Made by a program: the position numbers and the translations under genes. The notes under the pieces were generated by a model. It was not told the origin of the DNA and made no database searches. It saw only the letters and a program-made list of their open reading frames with translations. A stretch of 58,481 nucleotides of DNA, taken from IMG/VR virus record IMGVR_UViG_3300034004_000010, positions 1 to 58,481 of that record. The stretch is one strand, 5' to 3'. Below, piece after piece: positions 7,660 through 58,481 of the stretch (position 1 is its first letter; each line of letters starts with the position of its first letter). Source of the DNA: a virus (Duplodnaviria; Caudoviricetes).

Positions 7660-8042
7660 CCACCACCCAGGCACTCGACGTCCAGATCGCCGTCGGCCCC
7701 GGCTTCGTCTCCCAGCTCCTCAACGCCAACGACCGGGGCCACTGGGCCACCAAGGAAGCCCGCCGCCGCTACTGGCTCGACACCACCATGTACCGCCTCC
7801 GCGGCCACGCTGGCTTCGGCGACCAGCACGTCCACATCGTCGTCACCATCGCCTGGCCCGACCGCCGGCGCCGCGATATCGGGAACCTCGCTCCGACGGC
7901 AAAAGTGCTGGTCGATGCGGCAGTCCGCGCCGGGATCTTGGTGGACGACTCAGACCGCTACGTCACCGGCCCCGACCTCCGCCGCGCCTACGGCCCCCAC
8001 CAGATCCGCATGACCATCACCCCGACAGGAGCGGCAGCGTGA
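7656..8042 (+). CDS. RusA-like Holliday junction resolvase
   Basis: LLNAN..HW, PDRRRRDIGNLAPTAKVLVD, GILVDDS motifs. Confidence 0.7.
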   Translation: MTTTQALDVQIAVGPGFVSQLLNANDRGHWATKEARRRYWLDTTMYRLRGHAGFGDQHVHIVVTIAWPDRRRRDIGNLAPTAKVLVDAAVRAGILVDDSDRYVTGPDLRRAYGPHQIRMTITPTGAAA

Positions 8043-8590
8043 ACGGCCCCACGCCCGGCGCAGTCGCCGGCACCACCAGCACCCGCCAGCCCGACAACTG
8101 GCGCACCCACGCCGCCTGCAGCGGCGCCCCCCTCGGCCTCTGGTTCGCACCCGACCAGGAACGCGCCACCGCCCGCCGAGAGCGCGAAGACAAGGCCAAG
8201 GCCATCTGCGCCACCTGCCCCGTCAAGACCCAGTGCCTCGACGAAGCCGTCACCGACCGCCTCGCCGGCGTCTGGGGCGGCCTCACCGACGAAGAACGCC
8301 ACATCCGCGCCACCACAGCCCGCCCCGGCGGCGCCCTCGACGACAAGTGCGGCACCCCCGGCGGACGAGGCCGCCACAAGCGCGCCGGAACACCCCCATG
8401 CCGCGCCTGCCTCGACTACGAGAACTGGCGCCGCGACCAGTCCTTCCTCCGCGCCTGGGACGCCGCACAGCCCCTCATCGCCCGCGGCTACACCCGCGAA
8501 CAAGCCGCCGCCGAACTCGGCGTCACCGTCGAGTCCGTGGAGCGCGCCGAACGCACCGCGCGCCACCACCGCCAACAGAACGCCGCATAG
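8039..8590 (+). CDS. WhiB-family transcription factor with an extra Cys cluster and C-terminal HTH
   Basis: W...AAC...WF...AKAICATCPVKTQCL...GVWGGLTDEER; then CGT...H...PCRAC; TREQAAAELGVTVESVER. Confidence 0.9.
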   Translation: MNGPTPGAVAGTTSTRQPDNWRTHAACSGAPLGLWFAPDQERATARREREDKAKAICATCPVKTQCLDEAVTDRLAGVWGGLTDEERHIRATTARPGGALDDKCGTPGGRGRHKRAGTPPCRACLDYENWRRDQSFLRAWDAAQPLIARGYTREQAAAELGVTVESVERAERTARHHRQQNAA

Positions 8591-9264: not shown

Positions 9265-10245
9265 ATGGCCCGCATGCGCTACCTCAAACCCGAGTTCTGG
9301 ACCGACAGTGCGGTCGTTGGGATGAGCCCTTGGGGTCGGCTGCTGTTCATCGGATCCTGGAACTTCGCGATCTGCGAGGCCGGCCACCTCGACGACGACG
9401 CCCTAGCCCTCAAGCTCAAGGTGCTCCCTGCTGACCCGATCAACGCCATTGAGGTGCTCGAAGAGGTCATCGCCAGCGGGCGGATCGTCCGCGAGCAGAC
9501 GCCCGATGGCCGCTCCTACCTGCGCATTCGCAACCTGGGCAAGCACCAGAAGGTCGACGCCAGGTGGGCAACCCGTTGCCCCTACTGTGCCACCTCAACC
9601 CTCGCCAACCCTCAGGAGAGTTTCGGTGAGGGTGGACGTGGCTCTACTACTCACGCCAACTCTCACCTTGACTCTGCCCAGGAGGGGATAGGAGGGGAGA
9701 GGAGAGAGAAGAACCCTTCCCCACCTGACGGCGGGGATGAGGTCGGCCAGGAGGGACTCCTCCTCGTCGCCAGCGAAGGCCGCCCCACCCGCAAGCCCGG
9801 GTTCGATGACTTCTGGGCCATCTACCCCCGCCGCGTCGGGAAGATCGCAGCCAAGGCCGCCTGGGACAAGGCCACCAAGACCCGCAAGGTTGACTCCGCA
9901 GTCATCCTCGCCGCCGCCCAGCGCTACCGCGACGACCCCAACCTCCCCGAGGAGACCCTGCGGCCCTACCCGCAGAAGTGGCTCAATGAGGGCCGCTGGG
10001 AAGACGACCCCCTCGCCGCCCCTCTGGACCTCGGTCGCCGCACAGAGCCGTCCGCGGTCCGACCCGACGGCTCCATCGATGCGGATGCCGTACTCGGCGC
10101 CGAGAAGTGGTCCCTGCCCTCACCCCCGCCCGGGATCGAGCCCGGCACCAGCGGCTACTCCGCATGGGCTCGACAGGCATGGAACGAACACCGAGCCGAA
10201 CGCGAGGCCAAGGCCCGCGAAGTCCTCGCAAGGAGGTCCGCATGA
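9265..10245 (+). CDS. Phage replication initiator (Rep)
   Basis: MARMRYLKPEFWTD...RLLFIG.WNFA N-terminus; FDDFWAIYPRRVGK..A..AW and P..WLNEGRWED C-terminal domain; upstream of DnaB. Confidence 0.8.
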   Translation: MARMRYLKPEFWTDSAVVGMSPWGRLLFIGSWNFAICEAGHLDDDALALKLKVLPADPINAIEVLEEVIASGRIVREQTPDGRSYLRIRNLGKHQKVDARWATRCPYCATSTLANPQESFGEGGRGSTTHANSHLDSAQEGIGGERREKNPSPPDGGDEVGQEGLLLVASEGRPTRKPGFDDFWAIYPRRVGKIAAKAAWDKATKTRKVDSAVILAAAQRYRDDPNLPEETLRPYPQKWLNEGRWEDDPLAAPLDLGRRTEPSAVRPDGSIDADAVLGAEKWSLPSPPPGIEPGTSGYSAWARQAWNEHRAEREAKAREVLARRSA

Positions 10246-15343: not shown

Positions 15344-15571
15344 ATGGCAGACACCAAGCCAGGGGATGGCAACGCCCAGAACCTCAAGGCCTACTGGACC
15401 AAGGGCCAGGGCCTAGCCAAGTGGGCCACCCACGCACACCCCTGGACAGCCCTGTACAACCACCTGCGCCAGCACATGCCAGACGAGATGGCCAAGCGTG
15501 TCGCCAGTGAGTGGTACCACCTCGTGCTAGGCCACTGGCCAGGCGAACGCAACGGCAAGGGCAAGGGCTGA
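15344..15571 (+). CDS. Small Trp/His-rich hypothetical protein
   Basis: GGGAGG RBS; LKAYWTKGQGLAKW...HLVLGHWPG. Confidence 0.75.
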   Translation: MADTKPGDGNAQNLKAYWTKGQGLAKWATHAHPWTALYNHLRQHMPDEMAKRVASEWYHLVLGHWPGERNGKGKG

Positions 15572-15572
15572 C

Positions 15573-15875
15573 ATGCCTGCCTGGCAGGGCAGCACCAGAC
15601 GCTCTCGTCTCCCCACTGACTGGCCCACGCGTATCCAGCCCGCCGTGCTGAGGCGTGACCGCTACACGTGCCAGCTCCAGTACGACGACTGCTGCATCGG
15701 CAAGGCGACACAGGCTGACCACATCAAGGCCGGCGACGACCACTCGATGAGCAACCTGCAAGCGGTGTGTGTCCCGTGTCATGCACGCAAGAGCGCACTC
15801 GAGGGCGCTGCAGCCAGGGCAGCCAAGCGCGCCGACCTCAAGCGCACACCCGAAGCGCACCCAGGCATCAGGTAG
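15573..15875 (+). CDS. HNH endonuclease (terminase-associated)
   Basis: VLRRDRYTCQ...ATQADHI...DDHSMSNLQAVCVPCHARKS; upstream of the terminase. Confidence 0.9.
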   Translation: MPAWQGSTRRSRLPTDWPTRIQPAVLRRDRYTCQLQYDDCCIGKATQADHIKAGDDHSMSNLQAVCVPCHARKSALEGAAARAAKRADLKRTPEAHPGIR

Positions 15876-36451: not shown

Positions 36452-37572
36452 CCGCGATGCGGGTCCTGTATGACGTCGACCTCAAGGCGTACGCCGACAG
36501 CGCGTCGCTGCCGCAACCCGACTTCAGGGTTGTGACCAACGGCGGCGCCACCTTCGCCGTCAGCGGCGGCGCGGGCGTCTTCACCGCGACGTCAGCGACG
36601 AACTACTCGTCGTACGCGTACGCGAAGCTACGCACGCAGGTCGAGGACAACTACGAGATCCTCGTCCAGTACAAGCTGGTGAACATCGGGGCCGGTGCAT
36701 TCGCCAGCCTGTACTTCCGGTCCTCCGACTTCAATGCAGTGAACTCCAGCCCCGACTGGTGCTACAACGCGGGCTTCCCGGTCGCCACCTCCTCGTACGG
36801 GTACTCGAAGCGGGCGAACGCGTCCACCGTAACGTTGGCGCCCAAGCAAGACGGCGCGCTATCGCGGACGCCGGTGAACGGCGACATCATCAGCTACCGG
36901 CTCCGGGTCGAGGGCGACCTGTTCCGCAGTAAGGCGTGGTTCGAGGGCACCACCGAGCCGTCCACCTGGGGCGCGTACGCGATGGACCCGGGGCAGGTGG
37001 GCCGCGGCGGGATGTACCTCTCCTTCAGCGGGGGCACCTTCGGCGCGGCAGTGATCGAGCTCCGCCGCGTCGTCGTCGCCGACCTGACGACCGACCGCGA
37101 AGGTGCGATCACCGAGTCGCAAAGCCTCGTGCACATCGGCCGAACCGAGACGATCCACGGCGTCAAGACGTTCAGCCAGCCTCCAACCATGCCCACTCCG
37201 ACGGCGACCGGGCATGCTGCGACGAAGGCGTACGTCGACGGCCTCGCCCTCACCAGGACTGTCAACGTCGTCGCCGCATCCGGCGCCGCGCAGACCATCC
37301 CGGCGCCAACGACGGCACTCATGCACAAGTACACCCTGACCGCGAACTGCACCTTCACGCTCCCGACTGCGGTGGCAGGGCAGTCGTTCCTCGTGTCGCT
37401 CGTGCAGGACGGCACAGGCTCCCGGACCGCCACCTTCACCGGTGCGAAGTGGCCGGGTGGCACGGCCCCCACTCTCTCCACCGGCGCGGGGAAGATCGAC
37501 GACCTGGCGTTCGTGTGCACCGACGCGACGACGGGCTGGAAGGGCCAAGTTGTGGGCTTGGACATGCGATAG
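36448..37572 (+). CDS. Tail fibre-like protein with a lectin-like N-terminal domain
   Basis: ETIHGVKTFS, HAATKAYVD fibre motifs; C-terminal domain paralogous to 39176..40141. Confidence 0.75.
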   Translation: MTAMRVLYDVDLKAYADSASLPQPDFRVVTNGGATFAVSGGAGVFTATSATNYSSYAYAKLRTQVEDNYEILVQYKLVNIGAGAFASLYFRSSDFNAVNSSPDWCYNAGFPVATSSYGYSKRANASTVTLAPKQDGALSRTPVNGDIISYRLRVEGDLFRSKAWFEGTTEPSTWGAYAMDPGQVGRGGMYLSFSGGTFGAAVIELRRVVVADLTTDREGAITESQSLVHIGRTETIHGVKTFSQPPTMPTPTATGHAATKAYVDGLALTRTVNVVAASGAAQTIPAPTTALMHKYTLTANCTFTLPTAVAGQSFLVSLVQDGTGSRTATFTGAKWPGGTAPTLSTGAGKIDDLAFVCTDATTGWKGQVVGLDMR

Positions 37573-39175: not shown

Positions 39176-40141
39176 ATGGCGCGGTACTACTTCCAACTCT
39201 CCACCGTCACCCCCGGGACGTACGTCCGGCTCGACTCCGCCTCCGGCTCAACATCCCCCACGGCGATCAGCCCCCGGGATTCCGCGGTGGTCATCCCCGG
39301 CTCGATCCTGAGATCAGATGCCACGACCGGGGGACTGCCGGGGGTGGCTGCCGGGGTGGCGACGCTGTACCAGAAGACCCTCAGTGCCACTGGCGCGGTG
39401 ACCGCCACTGCGACTCTGACGGGCACGCTCGTCGACGGCTCCGATCCGGGCGCGCTGCCTCCGTTGACCTTCCCGCAGCAGGTCAACACGTCGAGCGACC
39501 CGCCGAAGCTCGCGGGGCCTAACGCGTGGACCGGAACGCAGGACTTCACCGGCGCCACAGTGACCGGCATCAGTGGTGGCGGTAGTGCCACGGTTGGCAC
39601 TACCGCCGGCACAGTCGCGGCCGGGGACGACTCGCGGATCACTGGTGCGGCGCAGAAGTCGGCGAACCTGTCCGACCTGGCCTCCGCCTCCACCGCGCGA
39701 ACAAACCTCGGCCTCGGCACGGCCTCAACCCAAGCCACCGGAACCTTCCTGCAGGCCGTGAACAACCTGTCCGACGTCACTGCGGCGACAGCTCGCGCCA
39801 ACCTCGGCGCGGTGGGCATCACGGAGGCCGTGAACGTCGTCGCGACGTCAGGCTCCGCCCAGACGATCCCCGCGCCGACCACGGCGACGATGCACAAGTA
39901 CACCCTCACGGCGAACTGCACGTTCACTATGCCCACGGCCACAGCCGGGCAGTCGTTCTCCGTGTCACTCGTGCAAGACGCCACCGGCAGCCGCACAGCC
40001 ACCTTCACCGGTGCGAAGTGGGCCGGCGGCACCGCCCCGACCCTGTCGACAGGCGCCAGCAAGATTGACGACCTGGTGTTCCAGTGCACCGACGCCACCG
40101 TGGGCTGGAAGGGCTACGTCGCCGGACTGGACATGCGGTGA
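39176..40141 (+). CDS. Tail fibre-like adaptor protein
   Basis: GTVAAGDDSRI, NLSDL...ARTNLG repeats; N-terminus like 37627, C-terminus like 36448. Confidence 0.75.
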   Translation: MARYYFQLSTVTPGTYVRLDSASGSTSPTAISPRDSAVVIPGSILRSDATTGGLPGVAAGVATLYQKTLSATGAVTATATLTGTLVDGSDPGALPPLTFPQQVNTSSDPPKLAGPNAWTGTQDFTGATVTGISGGGSATVGTTAGTVAAGDDSRITGAAQKSANLSDLASASTARTNLGLGTASTQATGTFLQAVNNLSDVTAATARANLGAVGITEAVNVVATSGSAQTIPAPTTATMHKYTLTANCTFTMPTATAGQSFSVSLVQDATGSRTATFTGAKWAGGTAPTLSTGASKIDDLVFQCTDATVGWKGYVAGLDMR

Positions 40142-44226: not shown

Positions 44227-44260
44227 GATGCCCCCCACCTCGCCTGAGGTGGGGGGCATC
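44227..44260. terminator. Bidirectional hairpin where the two arms converge
   Basis: GATGCCCCCCACCTC-gcct-GAGGTGGGGGGCATC, a perfect 15-bp stem; a second hairpin lies at about 44175-44216. Confidence 0.8.
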
Positions 44261-45320: not shown

Positions 45321-45602
45321 TCAGCCGTCCCAGCTCAGTCGATAGTCGGGATGGTCGCGGTAGGGCTGGGCGAGCGCGCGGATCGCGACCAGGATGCCGG
45401 TGGCGTGGTAGCCGATGACTTCACCGCCGGGCAGGGCGCCCTGCTCGCGACGCAGATGGTAGGCGTCCAGGACGGCCCGCTTCGCCTCGACCTCGGCCAA
45501 GAGCCGCGCGGGCCAGCCGTAAGCGAGACCCAGCCCTGCATCGGCGCGGATGGCCCGCTCGTCCTCATCCAGCCGGCCGCGCAGGAACTCGGTCAGGTCC
45601 AC
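45321..45602 (-). CDS. DUF6221-like protein
   Basis: DLTEFLRGRLDEDE...PARLLAEVEAKR...LAQPYRDHPDY...W. Confidence 0.75.
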   Translation of the reverse strand: MDLTEFLRGRLDEDERAIRADAGLGLAYGWPARLLAEVEAKRAVLDAYHLRREQGALPGGEVIGYHATGILVAIRALAQPYRDHPDYRLSWDG

Positions 45603-46249: not shown

Positions 46250-46582
46250 TCACGGCCCGATCCTCAGGTTGGCCAACGCCTGGTCGTCTAGCCACACACG
46301 TACGGGGGCCCGCTCCATGTCGTGCAGCACGGCCTGCATCCGCGCCGCATCCTCCGCCGCCGCCCGCTCCGCCCCCTCCAGCGTCCGGCCGACAACGCCC
46401 CGCAGGCGGTCCTCGACCATCCGCTCCGGCATCTGCAACGCCCGCAACTCGGCACGCACCTCCTCGAGCAGCGGCGCCCACGAATCCACGTACGCCTTGA
46501 ACGCCGCGCTCGACACGTAGTAGCGGAAGCTCGCTGGCCGCAGCCGCACGACATCCGCGACCAGATCCGCCACGTCGGTCAC
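46250..46582 (-). CDS. Hypothetical protein
   Basis: GTGA overlap, GAGGTGG RBS. Confidence 0.6.
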   Translation of the reverse strand: MTDVADLVADVVRLRPASFRYYVSSAAFKAYVDSWAPLLEEVRAELRALQMPERMVEDRLRGVVGRTLEGAERAAAEDAARMQAVLHDMERAPVRVWLDDQALANLRIGP

Positions 46583-47001
46583 GACGCCACCTCAGCGGGC
46601 AGTGCGGGGACCTTCAGCAGGTCCAGTGCGACGCCCAACGCCCGGGCCAGCTTCTCCGCCTGCATCACGACGGCGAGGAAGCCCGGCGGGCAAGTGCCGC
46701 AGTCCTCGCCGTTGCGGATCTGCTCCAGCAGTCGCTCCTTCGTCCCGGCGCACTTGTCCAACGTCTCCGCGATCTCCCATCGGACCGTCTCGGCGGTGTC
46801 GCAGTCGACCGCGGCGGCAAGGGTGGTGAACTCCGCGTCCGCCGGGGCGGGAGGCATGACCGCGTCCAGCACGCGGATCGCGGCCTGGTAGGCGGTCAGG
46901 TTGACCTCGCCCGTGGACGGGTCGACGTACTTGGCAAGGGCCGCGCAGCCCACGTCATACATCTCGTCTGACACGGCCGGGGGGACAGTGTTGGTCCTCA
47001 T
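46579..47001 (-). CDS. Hypothetical protein
   Basis: GAGGT RBS before the ATG at 47001. Confidence 0.6.
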   Translation of the reverse strand: MRTNTVPPAVSDEMYDVGCAALAKYVDPSTGEVNLTAYQAAIRVLDAVMPPAPADAEFTTLAAAVDCDTAETVRWEIAETLDKCAGTKERLLEQIRNGEDCGTCPPGFLAVVMQAEKLARALGVALDLLKVPALPAEVAS

Positions 47002-47088: not shown

Positions 47089-48171
47089 TCAGAGGCCGAG
47101 CTTCGTGGCCGCGTTGTGCTTCCACACGCCGGCCTCTTCGCGGTAGCCGCGCATCACGTTCGGCGACTTCCACCCGCCCTGCTGCATGATGTCCATCTCG
47201 GACACCTCCTGCGCGTACGCCTCGGTGGCGAACCCGCGGCGGCCGGAGTGCCCACCCCAGTCCCCGGCGAGGCCAGCGGCAGCGGCGCGGCGCTTCACGA
47301 CCTCCGCGACGTCGCGGCCATCCAGCCTGCGCGGCTGGCCCCCGAGGGCCTTGAGGTTGCCCCACTGGTCCATCGACGGGAACGCGGGCCCCTCCGTGAC
47401 GCCGTAGACCTTGAGCCACGCCAGCCACGACCTCACAGGGCACGTGGCCATGTGTGAGCCGTAGGGGAGACCCTTCGTCTTCCCCTCGCCGGTCTGGTCC
47501 GTTTTCGACCGGCCCAGGACCACCTCGAGCCCGTCCTCGACGACGGTGAAGTCGGTGATGTCGAGGGCGGCGACCTCGGAGCGGCGGAACGCTCCGGAGA
47601 ACAGGACCAGCAGCAGCGCCCGATCCCGAACGTCGAGCGGGTCGCTGGCGAACGTGGCGAGGATGCGGCGAAGGTCCTTGGTCCGCATGGCCTTCTTCTT
47701 GCGCTTGCGCCTACCAGCGTCGGCCTGCGCCTTGCGGATGCCGGTGAGGACGGACACCACCTGCTCGGCCCACACGATCTGCCTGTGGGCGGTGACGCCG
47801 GCGTGGGCGTAGCCGACGCTGATGCTGGACAGCTTCTTCGTCAGCGTGGACGCCGCCAGCCCGGGCCGGTCGCCGTTCGGCTCGGCGAGGGCGGTGAGGT
47901 AGAGGCGGATCGTCTCGGACACGTACTGCGCGGGGGTCGCGCCCTCGCTGGTGGCGTCGTCCGGGCTGGGGAACACGGTTCGGGCGTGCTTGCCGCACCA
48001 CTCGACGTACAGCTTCCAGTCCGTCTCGTACACCCGCCACGTTGACGCCTTGCGCGAGTTGTCGGCGTGCTCGTCGGCCTTCGCCTTGAGCTCGGCGAGG
48101 ATCAGGGCGGCGTCGGGGCGGACGGGGGAGAGGGTGACCGGGGACGCCGTGGCGAGGTCGGTGGAGGTCAT
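47089..48171 (-). CDS. Tyrosine recombinase, Cre-like
   Basis: RDRALLLVLFSGAFRRSEV (R), RSKTDQ (K), GHSGRRGFAT (HxxR), GGWKS (W), MRGY (Y); N-terminal core-binding domain; no arm-binding domain evident. Confidence 0.92.
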   Translation of the reverse strand: MTSTDLATASPVTLSPVRPDAALILAELKAKADEHADNSRKASTWRVYETDWKLYVEWCGKHARTVFPSPDDATSEGATPAQYVSETIRLYLTALAEPNGDRPGLAASTLTKKLSSISVGYAHAGVTAHRQIVWAEQVVSVLTGIRKAQADAGRRKRKKKAMRTKDLRRILATFASDPLDVRDRALLLVLFSGAFRRSEVAALDITDFTVVEDGLEVVLGRSKTDQTGEGKTKGLPYGSHMATCPVRSWLAWLKVYGVTEGPAFPSMDQWGNLKALGGQPRRLDGRDVAEVVKRRAAAAGLAGDWGGHSGRRGFATEAYAQEVSEMDIMQQGGWKSPNVMRGYREEAGVWKHNAATKLGL

Positions 48172-50412: not shown

Positions 50413-51252
50413 CTACTGTCCGCCTGCGACGACGCGCAGGGTCGGGTTCTTGGCGGCACGGATGGCGTCCTTGACGCGGCCGGTGTTGCCGACGGACCAC
50501 CCGGCGTCCTTGATGGCGGTCGTGACGGTGGTGTACCCAGCGTCGGGACTGTCGGCGAGGGCGGCGCGGATGATGCGGTCGAGCTCGGTGTCGGGCACCG
50601 TCACAGGCGGGGGCGGACTCTGCCGGCCCTTGAGTGCAGCGATGGCGTCCGCGACGGCCTTGGCGCGGAGCGCTTCCTGCTCAGCGAGAACAGCCGCGAC
50701 GGCGGCATCGACGGCGCGGTGCGTCTCATCCTCGGCCTGGCGCAGGCGCTCGACGGCTTCGTCGAGCGCCGCCTGCAGTTCCGCAGTCCCATCCGTTGTC
50801 GTCTCTGCCTGGGCCGTGTCTGTGGCACCCTCCCCGGCGAGGTGCCACAGCAGGGACGCCGCGCCGAGAACCAGCACCGGCAGGCAGGACACGGCCACCA
50901 CCACCCACGGCGGAGCGGACGCGATCCCCCCCGCCGCCATCAGGTGGTACGCGGCCTGCCCGAACATGCCAAGGGCCAGAGCCGCCCCGCTCGAGGCCCA
51001 TGCGAACCCACGGGCCCGATCAGTGAGGCGCTCCGAGCTGGTGGCGACATAGAGGGCGTAGATGGCGTACGCCTCCACGCCGATCGGCAGCGTGATCGCT
51101 GTGTTCAGGGCGACGTTGTCGGCGATGCCAGGGAACGGCTTCACGACACCGAACCCCGTGAGGGAGCCGAGGCCCACCCACCCCGACCACGTGGACGCAC
51201 CTGCCGCCGCGCCGATGACGATCAGCGGCCACCTCTTGCGCGCGGGACTCAT
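50413..51252 (-). CDS. SpdB2/DUF2637-like plasmid-spread membrane protein
   Basis: About 4 hydrophobic segments (TLPIGVEAYA, GQAAYHL, VSCLPVLVLG), coiled coil, C-terminal HTH-like segment; ATGA-coupled to the traB-like gene. Confidence 0.7.
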   Translation of the reverse strand: MSPARKRWPLIVIGAAAGASTWSGWVGLGSLTGFGVVKPFPGIADNVALNTAITLPIGVEAYAIYALYVATSSERLTDRARGFAWASSGAALALGMFGQAAYHLMAAGGIASAPPWVVVAVSCLPVLVLGAASLLWHLAGEGATDTAQAETTTDGTAELQAALDEAVERLRQAEDETHRAVDAAVAAVLAEQEALRAKAVADAIAALKGRQSPPPPVTVPDTELDRIIRAALADSPDAGYTTVTTAIKDAGWSVGNTGRVKDAIRAAKNPTLRVVAGGQ

Positions 51253-53231
51253 GCCGCCGCCACCGTCCAGCCGGGCTCGCCCTTTGGGGTGGTCGCACGC
51301 TTCACGGCCTTGCCCTCCATCTCCTTGAGCAGCCCACTGACATAGGTGGGGTTCTGTCCGATCCTGTCGGCAATCTCCCCGCGAGTGAGTGCGTGACCCG
51401 CCGTGCGCAGCACATCGGGGATGAGTTCGCGGGCCGTGCGCCCCCCGCTCTGGGGGGGGACGAGGGCGAGGCGGCGGGGCTCCTCGACGTGAACGCCGGC
51501 AGCGACCTCGACGACCTCGCGGATCGGCTCCGCGGCTGGTGCGGCCTCGGGCTCGGCGTCCATGAACTCCGGCAGCCACCGCGCCACGATCGCCTCGTCG
51601 TCCGGGTGCAGCTTCGCCACCCGCGTCTCCGCCAGCCAGTCCTCCACCGTTCCGTGCGGCGCGGCGAAGTCCATGAACTCCAGCTCATCGCGGGTCGGCA
51701 GCATCCTCGCCCGCATCGGCACCAGCGGCACCGCATGCAGGGACGACTTGATGAACCACCAGCCAGCGGCAGCGGGCAGCCTCGTGGGGTCCACGTCGAA
51801 CCCCTGGGTGGCGTCCCTGGCGGCCTGGGCGTCGGCGTACCGGCCGATGTAGACGGTGCCGTTGCCGCGCAGGTCGTTACGGAACGCCGTGGAACCGAGG
51901 GACTCCCCGTCGCCCTTCTGGGTGTTCAGGATGAGGTTGCAGCCGAAGCTGGCGCCCTGGGAGGCGATGTCCTCGAGCTTGCCGATGACGGCCCGCCCCC
52001 AGACCTTGTTCATCTTCCGCATCTCGTCGATCATCGTGGCGAACAGGGGGTCCTGGTAGCCGTCGACCACTGCGTCCGGGTGGTAGAAGTTGCGCCCCGC
52101 CCGCCCGTACCTGCCGGCGCGGGCGGAGAACACCTCGTGGGACATCTCGACCACGCACCGCCACTGGTCGCGGGTCCACCCGTACACGTCAGCGCCGGCG
52201 CGCAGCTCGGGGACGCCGGCGCCGCCCTCGTGCTCGCCCTTGCAGTCAGCGATGGCGAGGAACGCCTGATCCCAGCGGGCCAGGGCCACGCCGAACTGGC
52301 GCATCACGATGCCCTTGCCGTGACGCGACGGCGCCAGGATGACGGCGTGCGCGGCGCCTGAGGGGCCACGGAGCGCGGCGAGAGCAGCACGCCCGTCGGC
52401 GGAGTCGGCGGACTCGAACGCGCCCCGCTCGGACACGTTCCCGTCGGACCAGTACCGCACCACGGACGCGTCGTGCCGGTCGGTGACGGCCACGAGGAAG
52501 TCGTTCGCGTCGCCCTCGGGGTCCGGGGAGATGGACACGGTCCCGCGGGGGCGGCACAGCAGCCGGCACGCCCGTTCCGATGCGCCTTCCACGCCGTCGT
52601 CGCCGTCGATGGGTGCGCGGAGGTGGAACCTGTCGGTGGCGGGGTCGTGGCGGAGCTCGGTGAGGGCGAGGGGCCCGGCCTTGGGGTGCTGGGCGACCTC
52701 CCACTCCCACTGCTCCACCAGCGGGTGGGCCTGGATGGGTTCGGGGCGGTCGTCGCGGAGCATCCACGCGCGGCCCTTCCAGAACGGCCACAGGGCGCCG
52801 ACGGTGACGGCGACCCAGAGGGCGGCCTGGACGCGCCAGTCGATGTCGGGGGTGGCGTCGAGCCACACCTGCCAGGCGGCGGCGGCAGCGCAGGCGCGGC
52901 GCAGGCGGGTCTGCTCGAGCGCGCTGATCCACCGCTTCGGTTCGCGCCACAGGTCGAACGCGAACCCCAGCGCCAGCCACACCCACGGCGTCCACCACGA
53001 CACGTAGCAGGCGGTGGCAGCGAAGTAGACGGGCCGCAGGTGGTAGCGGTAGCGGCCACGGGCGGTCTGGTTGCCCAGCCAGTACAGGGTCATCCCGGTG
53101 AGGGTGACGCCCTGGACGAGGGGCTTGAGGGTGGCGGTCCAGAACAGGAACCGCAGGACGGCGACGCCGGGGGCGCGGCCGGGCGGGGCGGGGGCGGGAG
53201 GCGCCGGGCGGGCGATCGTGACGAGCGGCAT
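51249..53231 (-). CDS. TraB-like FtsK/SpoIIIE conjugal DNA translocase
   Basis: N-terminal TM segments; Walker A variant APSRHGKG; DCKG; Walker B TMIDE; NTQK; C-terminal winged helix (LTRGEIADRIGQNPTYVSGLLKEM...GW); AAGGAGG RBS. Confidence 0.8.
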   Translation of the reverse strand: MPLVTIARPAPPAPAPPGRAPGVAVLRFLFWTATLKPLVQGVTLTGMTLYWLGNQTARGRYRYHLRPVYFAATACYVSWWTPWVWLALGFAFDLWREPKRWISALEQTRLRRACAAAAAWQVWLDATPDIDWRVQAALWVAVTVGALWPFWKGRAWMLRDDRPEPIQAHPLVEQWEWEVAQHPKAGPLALTELRHDPATDRFHLRAPIDGDDGVEGASERACRLLCRPRGTVSISPDPEGDANDFLVAVTDRHDASVVRYWSDGNVSERGAFESADSADGRAALAALRGPSGAAHAVILAPSRHGKGIVMRQFGVALARWDQAFLAIADCKGEHEGGAGVPELRAGADVYGWTRDQWRCVVEMSHEVFSARAGRYGRAGRNFYHPDAVVDGYQDPLFATMIDEMRKMNKVWGRAVIGKLEDIASQGASFGCNLILNTQKGDGESLGSTAFRNDLRGNGTVYIGRYADAQAARDATQGFDVDPTRLPAAAGWWFIKSSLHAVPLVPMRARMLPTRDELEFMDFAAPHGTVEDWLAETRVAKLHPDDEAIVARWLPEFMDAEPEAAPAAEPIREVVEVAAGVHVEEPRRLALVPPQSGGRTARELIPDVLRTAGHALTRGEIADRIGQNPTYVSGLLKEMEGKAVKRATTPKGEPGWTVAAA

Positions 53232-53334
53232 CGGTGCCTCCTTCAGGGGTTAGGTGAGGTTCAGGTGGGGTTCAGGGATGGGGTGGCCCGCCGAGCCGGG
53301 ACGGCGGCTCGGCGGGCCCGATTGCCCGGCGAGG

Positions 53335-54192
53335 TCAGTCGCCGGACAGCTCTCGAGCGAGGTCAGCGACGTGCGTCGCGTGCTCGCGCAGCGCCTCCCC
53401 GTCCCGTGCGACCGCGGTGGCGGCCTCAACGAACGCGACAACCTCGCGATTCATGTCGCCGCCGAAGTCACGGACCACGTCCTGCAGCCCCGCGCACGCC
53501 TTGATGACCTGCACGAAGTCAGAGCCGTCGCCGAGGGCACTGATCTGCTCGGCGAACCTGCGCACGGACGCCAGGTCGCCGAACTCACCACCGCCCTGCG
53601 CGGGGCCGCCGACGTCGTGCCAACGGGAAGCGCTGGCCATCCCCGCCATCCGGCGCTCGTCCTCGCGGCTCTGCCAGACCTTGTCCGCGTCGTAACCCCT
53701 GCGCAGGAGGTCCTGGCGTTCTTCGGGCGTGAGGTTGGGGGTCTCGCCGCGCCCCCTCGAGCCACGCAGCGACGCGTTCGCCGCGCGCCAGTCTGCGGCT
53801 GCCCGCTCAGGGGTGTCGGGCCCGCTCATCCCGACGAGACGCGTGGTGCTGCCCGCAGGGATGGGCGGGGGTGGGGTGCTCGTGGTCATGTTGTCCTCAT
53901 CTCGTGTCGTTTCAAGGGTGCGGGTGGGCTGGGCTTCTCCGAGCGACTTGTGGTGTTCCGCGCACTCCACGCAGAGCCGGACCTGGGTCCAGTCCTTGTA
54001 GGTGATGTCGACGGTGGCCGGCTGCCAGCAGGACCCGCACCTGCAGAGCCCTGCCCGCGGCTCGTTGGGGTCGTAATTGGCCCGCAGATGGCGACGACAG
54101 ACCAGGCGGCCTTTGATCCAGAACTCGCCGAGGATGTCGGCGCCTGACGCGCAGTCCTGGCACCAGCCGAACTCCTCGGCATGCCTGTGCAT
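53335..54192 (-). CDS. Cys-rich Zn-binding protein fused to a helical-hairpin domain
   Basis: CQDC...CRRH, CRCGSC...CVECAEHH; C-terminal domain paralogous to that of 54198..55163. Confidence 0.65.
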   Translation of the reverse strand: MHRHAEEFGWCQDCASGADILGEFWIKGRLVCRRHLRANYDPNEPRAGLCRCGSCWQPATVDITYKDWTQVRLCVECAEHHKSLGEAQPTRTLETTRDEDNMTTSTPPPPIPAGSTTRLVGMSGPDTPERAAADWRAANASLRGSRGRGETPNLTPEERQDLLRRGYDADKVWQSREDERRMAGMASASRWHDVGGPAQGGGEFGDLASVRRFAEQISALGDGSDFVQVIKACAGLQDVVRDFGGDMNREVVAFVEAATAVARDGEALREHATHVADLARELSGD

Positions 54193-54197
54193 GACCG

Positions 54198-55163
54198 CTA
54201 GCTGCCCTGGACGGACATGGACGTCTTCGCCAGCTTGCTCGCCTGCTCCCGCAGTGAGTCCACTGCGGACGCGAACTGGCGGGCGGTCGCCTCGAGCTCG
54301 TCGACCGCCGAGTCCATCTCGGCGCCGAACCCGCCGGCGCGGGACTGCTCGCCGATCACGTGGGCCTTCGCGGCGACGACGATGAAGTCGGACGCGATGG
54401 TCAGGGCGTCGATCTGCTGGGCGAAGTCCTGGACGGCGGTGTGGGTGCGCAGCTCGGTGGGGACAGGCATGGGTGCTCCGTTCGTCGGGGTAGGTGCAGT
54501 GCGGCCTGCCGGGCTGGTTCCGGCTGGCGGGTCCATGGGTGTGGGGAACGGCCAGTCCCCTGCGAAGCGGTTGCCGTCCTGGTCGATGGGGCCGGTGTAC
54601 CCGCCGTGCCGCAGGGTCCAGAAGCGGCGCTCCTTGTCCGTCAGGGGGGCGGGGTGCATGGCGTTCCACTCGGGCGTCCAGCGGTCCCGAATGGACGCCT
54701 CACTGTCGAGCTGCGGACTGTCCTCGACCGCCGGGGACACCTGTCCCGGGGGGGTGTCCTGGCCCTGTGCCTGCGGGGTGTCCTGCCTGTCCTCGCCGGG
54801 TGTCCCAGCGGCTGTCCTGGCCTTGTAGGCCTCCTTGGCCTGGCGCCACGCGGAGGCTGTCCCGGCGGCACCCACTGCACCTGCCAGGCCCACCGCCTTC
54901 GCGGTCTTCCCCGCAGCGAGGACAGCTCGCCCCGCCTTGCGCTGGGACAGCTTCTTGCTCACGGCGCCGGGCTGTACCGATCTGGCCCACCGCTGGCTGG
55001 CCCCAGCCTTGAACCCGCCCGGGACAGCCTTCGCGCCCGCACCGAGGCCACCCGCGACCCGGCCTGTCCTGGCCTTCGCGGGACCATCCGGGACAAGCTT
55101 CCAGGCGTACCGCCCAGCGACGATCAGGCAGAACAGGACCACGCAGGCCCGGACCAGTCCCAT
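54198..55163 (-). CDS. Membrane-anchored protein of the tra region with a C-terminal helical domain
   Basis: N-terminal TM, low-complexity linker with repeats, possible internal start at 54470 (GGAG RBS). Confidence 0.65.
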   Translation of the reverse strand: MGLVRACVVLFCLIVAGRYAWKLVPDGPAKARTGRVAGGLGAGAKAVPGGFKAGASQRWARSVQPGAVSKKLSQRKAGRAVLAAGKTAKAVGLAGAVGAAGTASAWRQAKEAYKARTAAGTPGEDRQDTPQAQGQDTPPGQVSPAVEDSPQLDSEASIRDRWTPEWNAMHPAPLTDKERRFWTLRHGGYTGPIDQDGNRFAGDWPFPTPMDPPAGTSPAGRTAPTPTNGAPMPVPTELRTHTAVQDFAQQIDALTIASDFIVVAAKAHVIGEQSRAGGFGAEMDSAVDELEATARQFASAVDSLREQASKLAKTSMSVQGS

Positions 55164-55612
55164 CACCCGAACCACCCGCTCGTCTGCTGCCGGGCCGGCT
55201 CACTGATCTGGTTCACGACGTGGCTGACGTTGCGGCCGAACTTCCCCGGGATCGCGCCCTGGGCCAACGCCGAGGGCAGGACCAGCAGGACAAGGACCAC
55301 CGGGACCGCGACCGACGACCCAGGGGCCAGGTTCTGCGGCAGGACAGCCTCGACCGCGAGGAACAGTCCCACGACCAGTCCCACGGCGATCGCCAGCCGC
55401 AGCCATGGGTTCAACCCGATGACGTACCCGATGAACCGGTACAGCGCCGTGGCGGTCGCCCAGTATCCGGCGACCAACGCCAGGACAGCCGCGACCAGCC
55501 CGACGATCGACATGATGACGCCCTGCCTGTTGCCGAAGTTCAGCCGCCCCGCGAGGGTCAGCAGCCCGACGGCGACAGCGGTCAGGAGCGCCGCGTACGT
55601 GTATGCCCTCAC
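55163..55612 (-). CDS. 4-TM membrane protein (Spd-like)
   Basis: AAGGAAGG RBS; four hydrophobic segments; TGATG-coupled to the next gene. Confidence 0.7.
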   Translation of the reverse strand: MRAYTYAALLTAVAVGLLTLAGRLNFGNRQGVIMSIVGLVAAVLALVAGYWATATALYRFIGYVIGLNPWLRLAIAVGLVVGLFLAVEAVLPQNLAPGSSVAVPVVLVLLVLPSALAQGAIPGKFGRNVSHVVNQISEPARQQTSGWFG

Positions 55613-55654
55613 GGGCTCGCCTTCCTTTCTGTGGTGGGTGCAGTGGGTCGGGAT

Positions 55655-55757
55655 GGGTGTCAGGGGGGGGGTGTCAGGTCCTGACGGTGTTCGTGCTCCG
55701 CCTCGCGCGCCCACGCACGTAGGGAGCCACCCCCTGACACCTGACGGACCCCCTGAC
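55655..55757. repeat. Cluster of CCTGAC / TGACACC repeats in both orientations
   Basis: GGGTGTCAGG at 55655 and 55669; CCTGAC at 55680, 55733, 55740 and 55752; intergenic. Confidence 0.7.
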
Positions 55758-55764
55758 TGTGCGG

Positions 55765-55968
55765 CTACTGGGGGCGGTGCTCGATCCAGCCGGCGTAGGC
55801 GTCCCACGCGTCGATCCGGTACCGCGTCCAATCCCCCAGACCGCGTGCCTTCACCTCGTTGCGCAGGACCAGCAGGCAGGCGAGTCGGTCGCGGGGCTTC
55901 ACGTCGCGGCTGACCTCGCCGCGGACGAGTCCCATCGCGTCTTCCTCTACGAGCCGCAGCCTGGTCAT
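55765..55968 (-). CDS. Hypothetical protein
   Basis: ATGA overlap. Confidence 0.55.
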   Translation of the reverse strand: MTRLRLVEEDAMGLVRGEVSRDVKPRDRLACLLVLRNEVKARGLGDWTRYRIDAWDAYAGWIEHRPQ

Positions 55969-56279
55969 GCAGCCTTCCGCTCCCCCGCCTCAATGGCGGC
56001 GACCTCGGCGCGGTCCCGCTCCCTGGCGACCCGGACTCGCTCGGGAGAGAACACGTCCACGTTCGGCGGGAGGTCGTACCGGTAGCTGCGCCGGATCGCG
56101 GGACCTACGGCGACGACGAGGATGAGCGCGAGGGCGACGGCCCCGCCGTAGACGGCACCGATGAACCCCCATGAGACGCCACCGAATCGGGCGACCGCGA
56201 AGGGGCCGAGGACGACAGGCGCGGCGAGGACGAGGTTCCAGCGGGTGGCCCAGGACAGGCTCGCCAGGTGCGCGATCAC
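55965..56279 (-). CDS. 2-TM membrane protein
   Basis: GTGA overlap; hydrophobic segments. Confidence 0.65.
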   Translation of the reverse strand: MIAHLASLSWATRWNLVLAAPVVLGPFAVARFGGVSWGFIGAVYGGAVALALILVVAVGPAIRRSYRYDLPPNVDVFSPERVRVARERDRAEVAAIEAGERKAA

Positions 56280-56557
56280 GCCGCCACCTGGCCTCGGTCG
56301 GCCCGGCGCCGCTGTCGGCGGATGGCCTGCCGCTCCTCATCGGAGGTCGCCCCCCAGATACCCCACTCGAACCGCTCGACGGCGTACTGCAGGCACTGCT
56401 CCATGACGGGGCAGCGACGGCAGACGGCCTTGGCGGCGAGGGTGTTGCCGCCCTTGTCGGGGAACCACTCGTCTCCGCCGACCTGCGCGCAGAGCCCGCG
56501 GGTCATCCACTCGGCGCCGTCGAGGTCGAGGTCGGCGAGGGAGTCGAGGCCGATCAC
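56276..56557 (-). CDS. WhiB-family transcription factor (second copy)
   Basis: W..RGLCAQ....WFPDKG...AKAVCRRCPVMEQCLQYA....WGIWGATS..ER. Confidence 0.92.
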   Translation of the reverse strand: MIGLDSLADLDLDGAEWMTRGLCAQVGGDEWFPDKGGNTLAAKAVCRRCPVMEQCLQYAVERFEWGIWGATSDEERQAIRRQRRRADRGQVAA

Positions 56558-56718
56558 GACGCTCTCCGCATGCAGGAGGAGCGGTGGCTACGGAGCTGGA
56601 AGTGTGACGGGAAGACTTGCGGGCAGAAGCCGCAGGGCCAGCCTGCCGAACCGCCACGCGGAGTGGGCTTGGCGGGCTTGGGAAGCTTGCTGCGACCCGG
56701 AACGCGACGGTCGATCAC
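56554..56718 (-). CDS. Mini C2HC zinc-finger protein
   Basis: GTGA overlaps; C-GF-C-PQV-F-PSHFQ-L-RS-H-RSS-C. Confidence 0.6.
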   Translation of the reverse strand: MIDRRVPGRSKLPKPAKPTPRGGSAGWPCGFCPQVFPSHFQLRSHRSSCMRRAS

Positions 56719-56978
56719 GACACACCCGCCCTGTCTGCGGCCTCGTCGGCGCGAAGGTCGCTGCGGGCGCCGTCGAGGGGGCCCGTGACGGTCCAGGCGG
56801 CGGCGCAGAGCGTCAGCGACGCCACCAGGAAGCTGATGTCGCCGGTGGCGACCATCGCAGCGAAGGATGCGACTGCGGCGGCCAGGGCAAGGCCGTAGGC
56901 ACCCCACAGGAAGCGGACGATGCGCCGCATCTCGGCGGGAGTGGGGTCCGGCAGGTCGGCGCTGTAGACGCTGGTCAT
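56715..56978 (-). CDS. 2-TM membrane protein
   Basis: GGAGG RBS, ATGA overlap. Confidence 0.65.
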   Translation of the reverse strand: MTSVYSADLPDPTPAEMRRIVRFLWGAYGLALAAAVASFAAMVATGDISFLVASLTLCAAAWTVTGPLDGARSDLRADEAADRAGVS

Positions 56979-57142
56979 GAGGTGCCTCCCCGGGTGATGA
57001 CGAGTGCGGTGACGCCGACCCCGGCCAGGACCATCACGACCACGGCGGGGACGTACAGGACGCCCTTGCTGCTAGCGGTGGTGACGGCGATGAGCAGGGA
57101 CGCGGCGAACAGGACGCCGAGCTGGGCACGCAGGTGCTTCAT
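56975..57142 (-). CDS. Small 2-TM membrane protein
   Basis: TGATG-coupled; MKHLRAQLGVLFAASLLIAV... Confidence 0.6.
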   Translation of the reverse strand: MKHLRAQLGVLFAASLLIAVTTASSKGVLYVPAVVVMVLAGVGVTALVITRGGTS

Positions 57143-57348
57143 CACGCCACCTGCTCCTTCTGCTCGCCCTGGCGGACGTAGGCGTCGATGGCGGCCCAGC
57201 TGGTGCGGACGCCGGACTTGCCGAGGGGGATCCGCGGCAGGGTGCCGTCGGTCATGAACTTGCGGATCTGGTCTTCGCTGCAGGCGAGGGCGACGGCCGC
57301 CTCGCTGACGCGGGCCAGGCGTGGCGCCTGGATAACTGCCTCGGTCAC
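57142..57348 (-). CDS. Excisionase-like (HTH_17/Xis) DNA-binding protein
   Basis: RVSEAAVALACSEDQIRKFMTDGTLPRIPLG..GVR....AIDAYV; GGAGG RBS. Confidence 0.8.
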   Translation of the reverse strand: MTEAVIQAPRLARVSEAAVALACSEDQIRKFMTDGTLPRIPLGKSGVRTSWAAIDAYVRQGEQKEQVA

Positions 57349-57367: not shown

Positions 57368-57403
57368 TGTCGTGTGGTGCCGTATGCGTACGGTAGCACG
57401 ACA
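57368..57403. promoter_or_regulatory. Palindromic operator between the divergent GntR gene and the tra operon
   Basis: TGTCGTG...GCCGTA-tgcg-TACGGT...CACGACA. Confidence 0.6.
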
Positions 57404-57477
57404 CGTTGGGCGGTGCGCAAGTCCTATCGCTGGCGGGTCGGGCACACTGAGCGCATGCGCACGAACGGTCACGCCGG

Positions 57478-57783
57478 GTGAGCCCGCCGGAGAAGTGGCG
57501 ACAGGTCTACGAAGACCTCGCCGCCGGGATCCGCAGCGGCCAGTACGCGCCCGGCGAGGCACTGCCCGGGGTCATCCGCATCCAGGCGCAGTGGACCGTG
57601 TCCAACTCCACTGCCGTCCGGGCGTTGCGTGAGCTGGTTGCGTCAGGGTTGGCCGTCTCGGTCGCCGGCCGCGGGACCTACGCGGCGCAGGACTTGCCGG
57701 GTGAGGACGCAGCGCCCTCCCTTGCTGACCGCGTGGCCGAGCTCGAGCGGCGCATGGACGCCCATGAGCAGGGGCACGCCTAG
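57478..57783 (+). CDS. GntR-family repressor (KorSA/TraR-like)
   Basis: WRQVYEDL...I.SGQY.PG..LP......W.VS..T..RALREL...GL.....GRGTY. Confidence 0.9.
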   Translation: MSPPEKWRQVYEDLAAGIRSGQYAPGEALPGVIRIQAQWTVSNSTAVRALRELVASGLAVSVAGRGTYAAQDLPGEDAAPSLADRVAELERRMDAHEQGHA

Positions 57784-57793
57784 CCTGAACACA

Positions 57794-57836
57794 GAACGGC
57801 GCGTAGCCCCAGACTGGAGGGGGCTGCGCGCCGTTC
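57794..57836. terminator. Hairpin between convergent genes
   Basis: GAACGGCGCGTAGCCCC...GGGGCTGCGCGCCGTTC. Confidence 0.7.
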
Positions 57837-58342: not shown

Positions 58343-58379
58343 GGTGGCGAACGTAGCCAGCGAGAGGGCGCGGGCGGGT

Positions 58380-58481
58380 GGGACGCGGCGGGGATCGGGT
58401 GGACTGGGGATGGGGATGACTGGGACCAGATCGCCCGTTCGGTCGACCAGGGTGGCTTGACACCCTGTCATGACACCCTCT
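58380..58481. repeat. Direct terminal repeat, copy 2
   Basis: Identical to 19-120. Confidence 0.95.

Follow-up and report, generated by a model that had tools for sequence, protein, structure and literature searches.

Why should the genome of a tailed phage carry a gene resembling those of the TraB/Tra transfer proteins of Streptomyces plasmids, and could its product, whose nucleotide-binding motif departs from the usual pattern, still drive DNA from cell to cell? These questions are raised by a 660-codon gene in the IMG/VR virus record IMGVR_UViG_3300034004_000010 (Duplodnaviria; Caudoviricetes); the window analyzed here is the whole of that virus record (58,481 bp, about 70% GC). A preliminary description of the gene, prepared from the DNA letters alone, had named it a TraB-like translocase with a non-canonical Walker A motif. 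From profile and structural comparisons of the protein, an alignment of its family, and an examination of the surrounding genes and DNA repeats, we tentatively hypothesize that it is a membrane-anchored double-stranded DNA (dsDNA) pump of the FtsK/SpoIIIE superfamily that moves phage DNA between cells.

In the accessible text of a study of the plasmid pSVH1, traB and the GntR-type gene traR form a kil-kor pair, TraB binds the 8-bp repeats of the clt site, and the spd genes make up a translationally coupled operon (PMC4447253). FtsK/SpoIIIE-like genes are noted in several Streptomyces phages, with no function given in the available excerpts of the source (PMC13587820). The accessible portions of the literature on TraB-type genes in phages, and on SpdB2 on actinophages, contain no TraB-type translocase in a phage genome.

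The translocase gene and its family

The gene and its immediate upstream signals are as follows.

51249-53231, minus strand: putative TraB/FtsK-type translocase gene (P0001), 660 amino acids (aa); open reading frame (ORF) and translation, profile homology, AlphaFold2/Foldseek
53237-53244, minus strand: Shine-Dalgarno sequence GAAGGAGG, with a 5-nucleotide (nt) spacer to the translocase ATG; read directly
53285-53318, no strand: hairpin with a perfect 14-bp stem, between the gene for a 285-aa protein and the translocase ribosome-binding site (RBS); inverted repeat I21

The preliminary description had the coordinates right but did not notice the minus-strand location: the ORF begins with an ATG at 53231, and the plus-strand reading of the same interval contains a stop codon. 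Its statement that the ORF is uninterrupted and has a strong RBS is borne out (660 codons, GAAGGAGG 5 nt before the ATG), and the motifs that it quoted are all found at the implied sites, the P-loop within HAVILAPSRHGKG at aa 295-307, DCKG at 329, MIDE at 400 and NTQK at 436. GC contents of 0.72, 0.53 and 0.93 at codon positions 1, 2 and 3 fit a real gene in 70% GC DNA, and the N-terminus MPLVTIARPAP is also found in homologues. Directly upstream of the RBS and right after the hairpin, three to four direct CCTGAAC-like heptamers (CCTGAAC, CCTGAAC, CCTAACC and CCTGAAG, with 7-12 nt spacing) lie on the minus strand at 53242-53276.

Searched as a single sequence, the protein has no match to Pfam PF01580 (FtsK_SpoIIIE) at E <= 1, its best PDB chain is no better than E 1.3, and tblastn gives zero matches in 50,697 phage records and zero in 72,556 plasmid records. 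The family is rare: an exhaustive search of 1.84 billion representatives returned 61 proteins at E <= 0.001, and there are six close homologues at 53-70% identity. An alignment of 47 rows (A2) was built from the window protein, 42 of the 61 representatives and four of the six close homologues, omitting 19 fragments shorter than 500 aa and the truncated P0006; its mean column identity is 19%. The A2 profile matches PDB chains of EccC (4nh0, E 3.2e-23), FtsK (2ius, 2.4e-8) and TcpA (6o1w, 5.7e-7), and its C-terminal part matches PDB winged helices of the Z-alpha, LexA and MarR type. Individual members tell the same story in part: Pfam FtsK_SpoIIIE is matched by 9 of the 47 at E <= 0.01, the winged-helix families HTH_24, HTH_IclR and MarR_2 by 7-11, and the FtsK/SpoIIIE-like PHROG 1358 by 15 (best E 1.9e-17). 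In the ESM Atlas the nearest clusters (0.95-0.97) consist of actinobacterial proteins, about 590-720 aa long, in which FtsK_SpoIIIE occurs together with a winged helix, and the top BFVD matches include predicted viral structures named 'DNA translocase FtsK'.

A link to plasmid transfer proteins

A distant member of the family led to a 703-aa 'hypothetical protein' of the linear Streptomyces plasmid NZ_CP119148.1, whose flanking genes encode DUF2637, NUDIX and RRQRL-zinc-proteins. HMMER aligns the family profile to this protein at E 1.2e-39 over profile positions 15-622 of 630, and hhalign gives a probability of 99.7% (E 2.5e-26, 412 columns) for an alignment that spans the beta domain through the winged helix; BLASTP with the phage translocase itself reaches E 2e-10, with 24% identity over 211 aa. 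Relatives of the plasmid protein occur in 192 actinomycete plasmid records, and some of these relatives are labelled 'transfer protein' or 'DNA translocase FtsK'. In tblastn searches of the phage records it found no relatives, and neither did the family member P0021.

This homology, together with the ESM Atlas clusters, indicates that the phage protein is a divergent member of the Tra/TraB-type branch. Its identity as a translocase of FtsK/TraB type, to which profile homology (EccC, FtsK, TcpA and the plasmid protein), the Foldseek fold and the architecture all lend support, is very probable, as the preliminary description had proposed; the placement runs through the NZ_CP119148.1 protein rather than through an experimentally studied TraB. 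A phage FtsK/SpoIIIE-like gene is here tied to the Tra/TraB branch of plasmids, along almost the full length of the family profile.

Domain architecture

The predicted domains, from N- to C-terminus, are listed below; pLDDT is the predicted local distance difference test score.

52758-53171, minus strand: N-terminal helical, probably membrane-embedded domain, aa 21-158; five AlphaFold2 helices
51552-52724, minus strand: FtsK-like alpha/beta motor, aa 170-560; Foldseek matches to FtsK and TcpA
51435-51551, minus strand: disordered Pro/Glu-rich linker, aa 561-599; pLDDT <50 for aa 565-596
51261-51434, minus strand: C-terminal winged helix-turn-helix, aa 600-657; AlphaFold2 and profile matches

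The preliminary description had made its case depend on a RecA-like fold, and the AlphaFold2 model (built on A2, mean pLDDT 86.8) has a beta-rich domain and a RecA-like core at about aa 192-510, which Foldseek matches to FtsK and TcpA. The top match is TcpA 6o1w (E 1.1e-12); FtsK structures 2ius, 6t8b and 6t8o match at E of about 4e-12, with template modelling scores by target of 0.60-0.66, and EssC/EccC and HerA rank after TcpA and FtsK. The winged helix is modelled as three helices and two strands with pLDDT >90. A two-copy complex prediction of the motor (aa 170-560) scored 0.00, a value that bears neither way on ring formation.

The domain order proposed earlier stands for motor, Pro/Glu linker and winged helix, and the transmembrane part is moderately supported. 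No 19-residue window exceeds 1.2 on the Kyte-Doolittle scale; on the Wimley-White octanol scale, three Trp-rich N-terminal stretches (about 26-44, 68-94 and 132-150) score as favourable, and similar segments occur in 11 of the 12 relatives checked. Judging by the modelled helices and these hydrophobic segments, the N-terminus is probably inserted in the membrane.

The structural ranking bears on a first alternative, namely that the protein is an EccC/EssC-type ATPase of type VII protein secretion and not a DNA pump. EccC/EssC chains are the best PDB matches of the profile (E 3e-23 to 1e-10), but the phage protein has one ATPase domain, not three, and both EccC domains align to a single region of the profile; it ends in a winged helix of DNA-binding type, Foldseek places TcpA and FtsK above EccC, and no other type VII component is found among the scanned neighbours. 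We regard a secretion ATPase as very improbable.

A remodelled active site

The catalytic motifs occupy the following positions.

52311-52334, minus strand: Walker A APSRHGKG, aa 300-307, with Gly for Ser/Thr and Arg at position 4; A2 columns
52023-52037, minus strand: Walker B and catalytic Glu, TMIDE, aa 399-403; A2 columns
51951-51953, minus strand: Ala427 at the canonical FtsK arginine-finger position; spacing relative to Pseudomonas aeruginosa FtsK
51915-51923, minus strand: sensor and DNA-gripping triad T437-Q438-K439 (FtsK T630-Q631-R632); FtsK spacing

The classical Walker A pattern is [AG]-x4-G-K-[ST], and adenylate kinases function with GKG. The earlier verdict of a non-canonical Walker A holds for the Gly that replaces Ser/Thr but not for the Ala at position 1, which is allowed and is present in 19 of the 47 rows (aa 300: G 24, A 19, S 4). 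G305 and K306 are each invariant (47/47). The residue after the Walker Lys, aa 307, is G in 41 rows, S in five and Q in one; GKG is common to 41 of the 47 members and is therefore a family trait, not decay. The preliminary description had overlooked that GKG is the family norm, and also the loss of the arginine finger (Ala427) and the P-loop Arg at position 4.

The remaining catalytic residues are well kept. D402 of Walker B is D in all 47 rows, the catalytic E403 is E in 45 and D in two, the sensor position 438 is Q in 40, H in six and L in one, and aa 439 is K or R in 36 of the 47. In the accessible text on P. aeruginosa FtsK, the catalytic Glu is residue 596, the trans arginine finger residue 620 and the sensor Thr630-Gln631 (bioRxiv 10.1101/2022.01.03.474797). 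The spacings of E403, A427 and Q438 (+24 and +11) equal those of FtsK E596, R620 and Q631, and Arg occupies position 427 in 36 of the 47 rows. An earlier argument against decay, drawn from the intact ORF and its RBS, is strengthened by the alignment: that the gene is not decayed is suggested by catalytic residues kept in a family of 19% mean column identity, with K306 and D402 invariant.

The lost finger is paired with a second change in the P-loop. Arg stands at Walker A position 4 in 10 of the 47 rows, and this residue (R303) is invariant among seven close homologues. Eleven rows lack the finger Arg, and 10 of these 11 have the position-4 Arg, which occurs in none of the 36 finger-bearing rows; among the 20 rows left out of A2, the 10 that cover both sites all obey the same rule (1 and 9). 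On a tree constructed without the trait columns, the finger Arg was lost at least four times; three losses coincide with a gain of the position-4 Arg (the clade of the window protein, P0016/P0017, and P0015/P0018), and one (P0047) does not. Terminases, in the accessible text of a study of these enzymes, almost always have Arg as residue 3 or 4 of Walker A, for which a role in coupling has been proposed (PMC6379665); they set a precedent for a viral DNA motor whose P-loop arginine is functional.

These features allow the protein to be read as a pseudo-ATPase that has lost hydrolysis and, tethered to the membrane, only binds DNA or acts as a scaffold, in regulation or superinfection exclusion for instance. 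The replacement of the Walker A Ser/Thr by Gly and of the finger by Ala would suit such a role, as would the failure of the Pfam FtsK_SpoIIIE model to recognize the protein. Set against this are the invariant Walker Lys and Walker B Asp, the Glu in 45 and the sensor Gln in 40 of 47 rows in spite of the low overall identity, the retention of the finger in most of the 41 members with GKG, and the pairing of finger loss with a P-loop Arg that was gained and then stayed invariant. No PADLOC defence model matched either: a defence system was considered for the translocase and nine neighbours and rejected for lack of any significant model, the sole PADLOC match being a marginal one of Csm2 (E 0.0066) to a 140-aa protein at 46579-47001. 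A pseudo-ATPase is improbable on this balance, and the conservation pattern suggests that the translocase is probably still an active NTPase.

The carrier: a complete phage genome

A direct repeat of 116 nt is present at both ends of the record (5-120 and 58366-58481, 97% identical), and the genome is therefore complete; it was assembled as a circle or has terminal redundancy, and its unit measures about 58,361 bp. The structural and packaging genes include those for a large terminase, a portal, a protease, a major capsid protein and a 1148-aa tape measure protein; further phage genes encode tail and tail-fibre proteins, an exonuclease, a RecT-like protein, a replication initiator and a DnaB-like helicase, and a serine integrase adjoins an HTH_3 repressor. 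The terminase shares about 50-54% identity with its counterparts in Rhodococcus, Streptomyces and Gordonia phages. The replicon is the complete genome of a temperate tailed actinophage and neither a plasmid nor an AICE (an integrative, conjugative element of actinomycetes), a fact that the preliminary description had missed.

The genome encodes two site-specific recombinases, both on the minus strand: the large serine integrase (782-2170), near the repressor and Cro-like genes, and a Cre-like tyrosine recombinase (47089-48171). Homologues of the translocase at 37-63% identity lie on contigs of 58.3-60.0 kb, near the size of this genome, which hints that the gene may be a stable part of a phage lineage; a portal homologue lies on a contig of 58.9 kb. 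A scan with the portal homologue gave five viral loci, the 58.9-kb contig not among them, and the family profile found no translocase family member in three of these loci (L002-L004).

The leftward operon

The translocase belongs to a leftward gene block that runs from 57348 to 44275 on the gene map. The genes considered here, with the divergent regulator that precedes them, are listed in the order of the block.

57478-57783, plus strand: GntR-family winged-helix regulator, 101 aa, divergent from the leftward operon; Pfam GntR E 7e-14
57142-57348, minus strand: first operon gene, excisionase-type HTH_17 (weak); Pfam E 0.019, under the curated cut-off
56975-57145, 56715-56978 and 55965-56279, minus strand: three small two-segment membrane proteins; hydropathy
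56276-56557, minus strand: WhiB-like gene; PHROG WhiB E 4e-21
55163-55612, minus strand: 149-aa protein with four hydrophobic segments; gene call and hydropathy
54198-55166, minus strand: 322-aa protein with a hydrophobic segment at its N-terminus and a region of low complexity; gene call, no family
53335-54192, minus strand: 285-aa Cys-rich protein directly upstream of the translocase; gene call and translation
50413-51252, minus strand: 279-aa membrane protein, its ATG start overlapping the stop of the translocase (ATGA); gene call
47089-48171, minus strand: Cre-like tyrosine recombinase, 360 aa, 3 kb downstream; Pfam Phage_integrase E 7e-14

In leftward order, the HTH_17 gene is followed by two small membrane proteins, the WhiB-like gene, the third small membrane protein, a 67-aa gene, the four-segment protein, the 322-aa and 285-aa genes, the hairpin, the translocase, the 279-aa gene, about eight small genes and the tyrosine recombinase. 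A second WhiB-like gene lies in the early rightward region (8039-8590, plus strand), the one at 56276-56557 being upstream of the translocase within the operon, and the distal leftward arm encodes a DUF6221 protein (45321-45602, minus strand; Pfam E 2.9e-18). The 285-aa protein has no family in Pfam, PHROGs, PADLOC or PDB, and the 322-aa protein has none in the library scans (Pfam, PHROGs and PADLOC). The 279-aa protein, for which Pfam has no family, belongs to a large uncurated one, with 1799 homologues at E <= 0.001 in Actinomycetota; an N-terminal membrane domain of about 140 aa, without a Pfam model, is highly conserved in it, with many invariant Trp, Gly and Pro residues, and many members have a C-terminal HTH. 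Against PDB at E <= 0.001, the tyrosine recombinase matches Cre and Tre only (best 2.6e-11).

Within about 10.5 kb, the arm at 47-58 kb combines a tyrosine recombinase, the excisionase-like HTH_17 gene, GntR, small membrane proteins and the Tra-type translocase. This raises another possibility, that the arm is a passenger, an AICE-like integrative element whose Rep was lost or never present, and that the translocase serves this element and not the phage. The gene set of the arm resembles that of AICEs, as far as the accessible text of the source goes (PMC3429521), and the block is missing in phage VWB in spite of a related terminase. In AICEs, Int, Rep and Tra modules lie between att repeats, usually at a tRNA gene. 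No direct repeat of more than 12 nt flanks the 47-58 kb block and there is no tRNA gene; no AICE-type Rep was recognized among the scanned proteins, which did not include the eight small ORFs between the recombinase and the 279-aa gene. The translocase homologues on contigs of 58.3-60.0 kb and the portal homologue on the 58.9-kb contig suggest, indirectly, a stable part of a phage lineage. A passenger element is accordingly rated as distinctly unlikely.

Candidate cis-acting sites

If the winged helix recognizes DNA as that of TraB does, repeats near the operon are of interest, and two groups stand out.

54635-55095, no strand: GGACA(G) array in both orientations, inside the 322-aa gene, candidate clt-like site; 8-mer clustering
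55650-55760, no strand: GTCAGG(G) repeats, intergenic, candidate operator; repeat scan

A genome-wide scan for local 8-mer clusters puts 54680-55095 far ahead, with the core GGACAG (Poisson p 2e-12 before correction); of the 39 copies of this hexamer in the genome, 9 fall within 420 nt. The gene at 54198-55166 holds 17 GGACA pentamers, as compared with 6.3 +/- 1.7 in synonymous-codon shuffles, none of 2000 shuffles reaching 17. All three codon phases and both strands contain the motif, and its orientation changes near 54.88 kb. The array exceeds what the encoded protein and its codon usage explain, and this excess, with the use of three phases and both strands, implies that it is selected at the level of DNA. 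Tried as an 8-mer with one mismatch, CCGGGACA shows no genome-wide enrichment (85 matches vs 117 expected), and its local clustering alone is significant. Two weaker 8-mer clusters, each with p of about 3e-7 before correction, are formed by CCTTGCCA at 15367-15698, just upstream of the packaging genes, and by CAGGAGGG at 9426-9748.

The second group includes the palindrome GTCAGGTCCTGAC at 55673-55685, of which this is the only exact copy in the genome; together with the GTCAGG(G) repeats it is a plausible candidate for a GntR-type operator. A second candidate operator is an imperfect palindrome of about 35 nt at 57371-57405, where the promoter region separates the leftward operon from the divergent GntR gene.

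The translocase can also be read in terms of prophage maintenance, with the pump and the Cre-like recombinase acting like FtsK and XerCD to clear or segregate a circular, plasmid-like prophage across septa and to help resolve its dimers. The orientation switch near 54.88 kb resembles polar loading sequences; the tyrosine recombinase, which matches only Cre and Tre in PDB (E <= 0.001), lies on the same strand and in the same gene block as the translocase, and the serine integrase beside the immunity genes would leave it free for another role. This reading meets several obstacles: about eight small genes separate translocase and recombinase, no ParA, ParB or plasmid Rep is found among the scanned proteins, the winged helix has no match to FtsK gamma among the best 60 PDB hits of the profile, and the nearest full-length homologue with annotated surroundings belongs to a plasmid with a transfer-type neighbourhood. 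We consider maintenance unlikely.

A proposed route for phage DNA, and its comparison with known systems

Under the hypothesis of DNA movement between cells, the translocase would work as an NTP-driven ring pump in which the P-loop Arg (R303) may take over part of the role of the lost finger. The winged helix would load the pump on a phage cis-site, for which the GGACA(G) array at 54.6-55.1 kb and the GTCAGG repeats at 55.65-55.76 kb are the candidates. Acting with the small membrane proteins of its operon, and controlled by the GntR-type (Kor/TraR-like) regulator, the pump would transport the genome of the phage or prophage, in dsDNA form, from one hyphal compartment or cell to another, by a conjugation-like route independent of the virion. 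Of the functions considered, such a conjugation-like spread has the most support; it is possible, and we put it forward with some reserve. The fullest version, in which a temperate tailed phage doubles as a Streptomyces-type conjugative element with a rebuilt catalytic centre and with the GGACA(G) array as its loading site, is more doubtful.

The closest parallel is offered by the TraB/Tra proteins of Streptomyces plasmids and AICEs (for example, TraB of pSVH1), which have the same order of N-terminal membrane part, FtsK-like motor and winged helix. As with traR/korA, a GntR-type regulator (101 aa) is encoded near the phage translocase, and the operon likewise has small membrane proteins and short repeated DNA motifs nearby. 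The differences are that the phage gene sits in a complete tailed-phage genome instead of a plasmid or AICE, that its operon has no recognizable Spd homologue, and that its product is very divergent from the plasmid relative, with a GKG P-loop, no finger and Arg at Walker A position 4.

With FtsK/SpoIIIE the protein shares the motor fold, and its Walker B, catalytic Glu and TQ(K/R) triad are spaced as in P. aeruginosa FtsK; unlike FtsK, it has no long linker and no FtsK gamma signature, Ala427 stands in place of the R620 finger, and Gly replaces the Walker A Ser/Thr. The FtsK/SpoIIIE-like proteins of phages (PHROG 1358) belong to the same superfamily and are phage-borne, but the window protein reaches them at only E 0.044. 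TcpA of the Clostridium plasmid pCW3, an FtsK-like conjugation ATPase and the top structural match, has about 17% sequence identity; it belongs to the multi-protein Tcp apparatus in Firmicutes and lacks a C-terminal winged helix of the kind found here. Large terminases are viral dsDNA motors with an 'arginine toggle', a conserved P-loop Arg at the same motif position, according to the accessible text of the source (PMC6379665). They belong to a different branch of the ASCE ATPases (additional strand conserved E), however, and have the P-loop Arg beside a trans finger, whereas the translocase family has it only where the finger is lost, so that the likeness is one of analogy, not homology.

Several results weigh against the proposed transfer function. 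As a single sequence the translocase finds no Pfam or NCBIfam model at E <= 1, and its match to PHROG 1358 is no better than the E 0.044 just given. VWB, the closest characterized phage relative examined (terminase about 50% identical), has no translocase gene. Searches for the loci of relatives yielded none, whether the close-family alignment was scanned against viral, metagenome and genome contig collections or single members were used (P0009 and P0003 for viral contigs, P0009 for metagenomes, P0076 for genome contigs). None of the neighbours examined in the library scans is assignable to a known Spd family: for the 279-aa protein, an identity as DUF2637/SpdB2 was a weak Atlas lead only and was rejected, the Pfam model being hit by none of 25 homologues and BLASTP showing no similarity to the DUF2637 protein of the plasmid. 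A Nocardia plasmid homologue of this 279-aa protein adjoins ParA, not a translocase. The absence of both the Walker A Ser/Thr and the arginine finger makes a non-catalytic role conceivable, and the independent-pairs test of finger loss and P-loop Arg gain (three pairs in the same direction, none opposite, one without change) gives a p of only 0.25 because there are so few events. The GGACA array, finally, could serve another DNA-binding protein.

The regulatory and membrane-protein genes around the translocase make up a plasmid-like setting within what is a complete phage genome. An active translocase would give the phage a second mode of spread that does not depend on virions, and the boundary between phages and conjugative elements in mycelial bacteria would be blurred. 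The family may also be regarded as a natural experiment in ring-ATPase mechanism: most of its members lack the Walker A Ser/Thr, and three lineages appear to have swapped a trans arginine finger for a P-loop arginine.

Other features of the genome

An Rfam scan found no families, no tRNA genes were found, and sigma-70-type promoters and T-tailed terminators are absent at 44-58.5 kb, which is unsurprising because the DNA is 70% GC. Near-perfect hairpins at 44227-44260 and 57794-57836 (arms of 15 nt and 17 nt) lie at the junctions of convergent gene blocks and probably terminate transcription in both directions, although they have no T-tails. A segment of 300 nt is present twice with 77% identity, in two tail or tail-fibre genes (37232-37531 and 39801-40100, 2.6 kb apart), possibly as a duplicated receptor-binding module.

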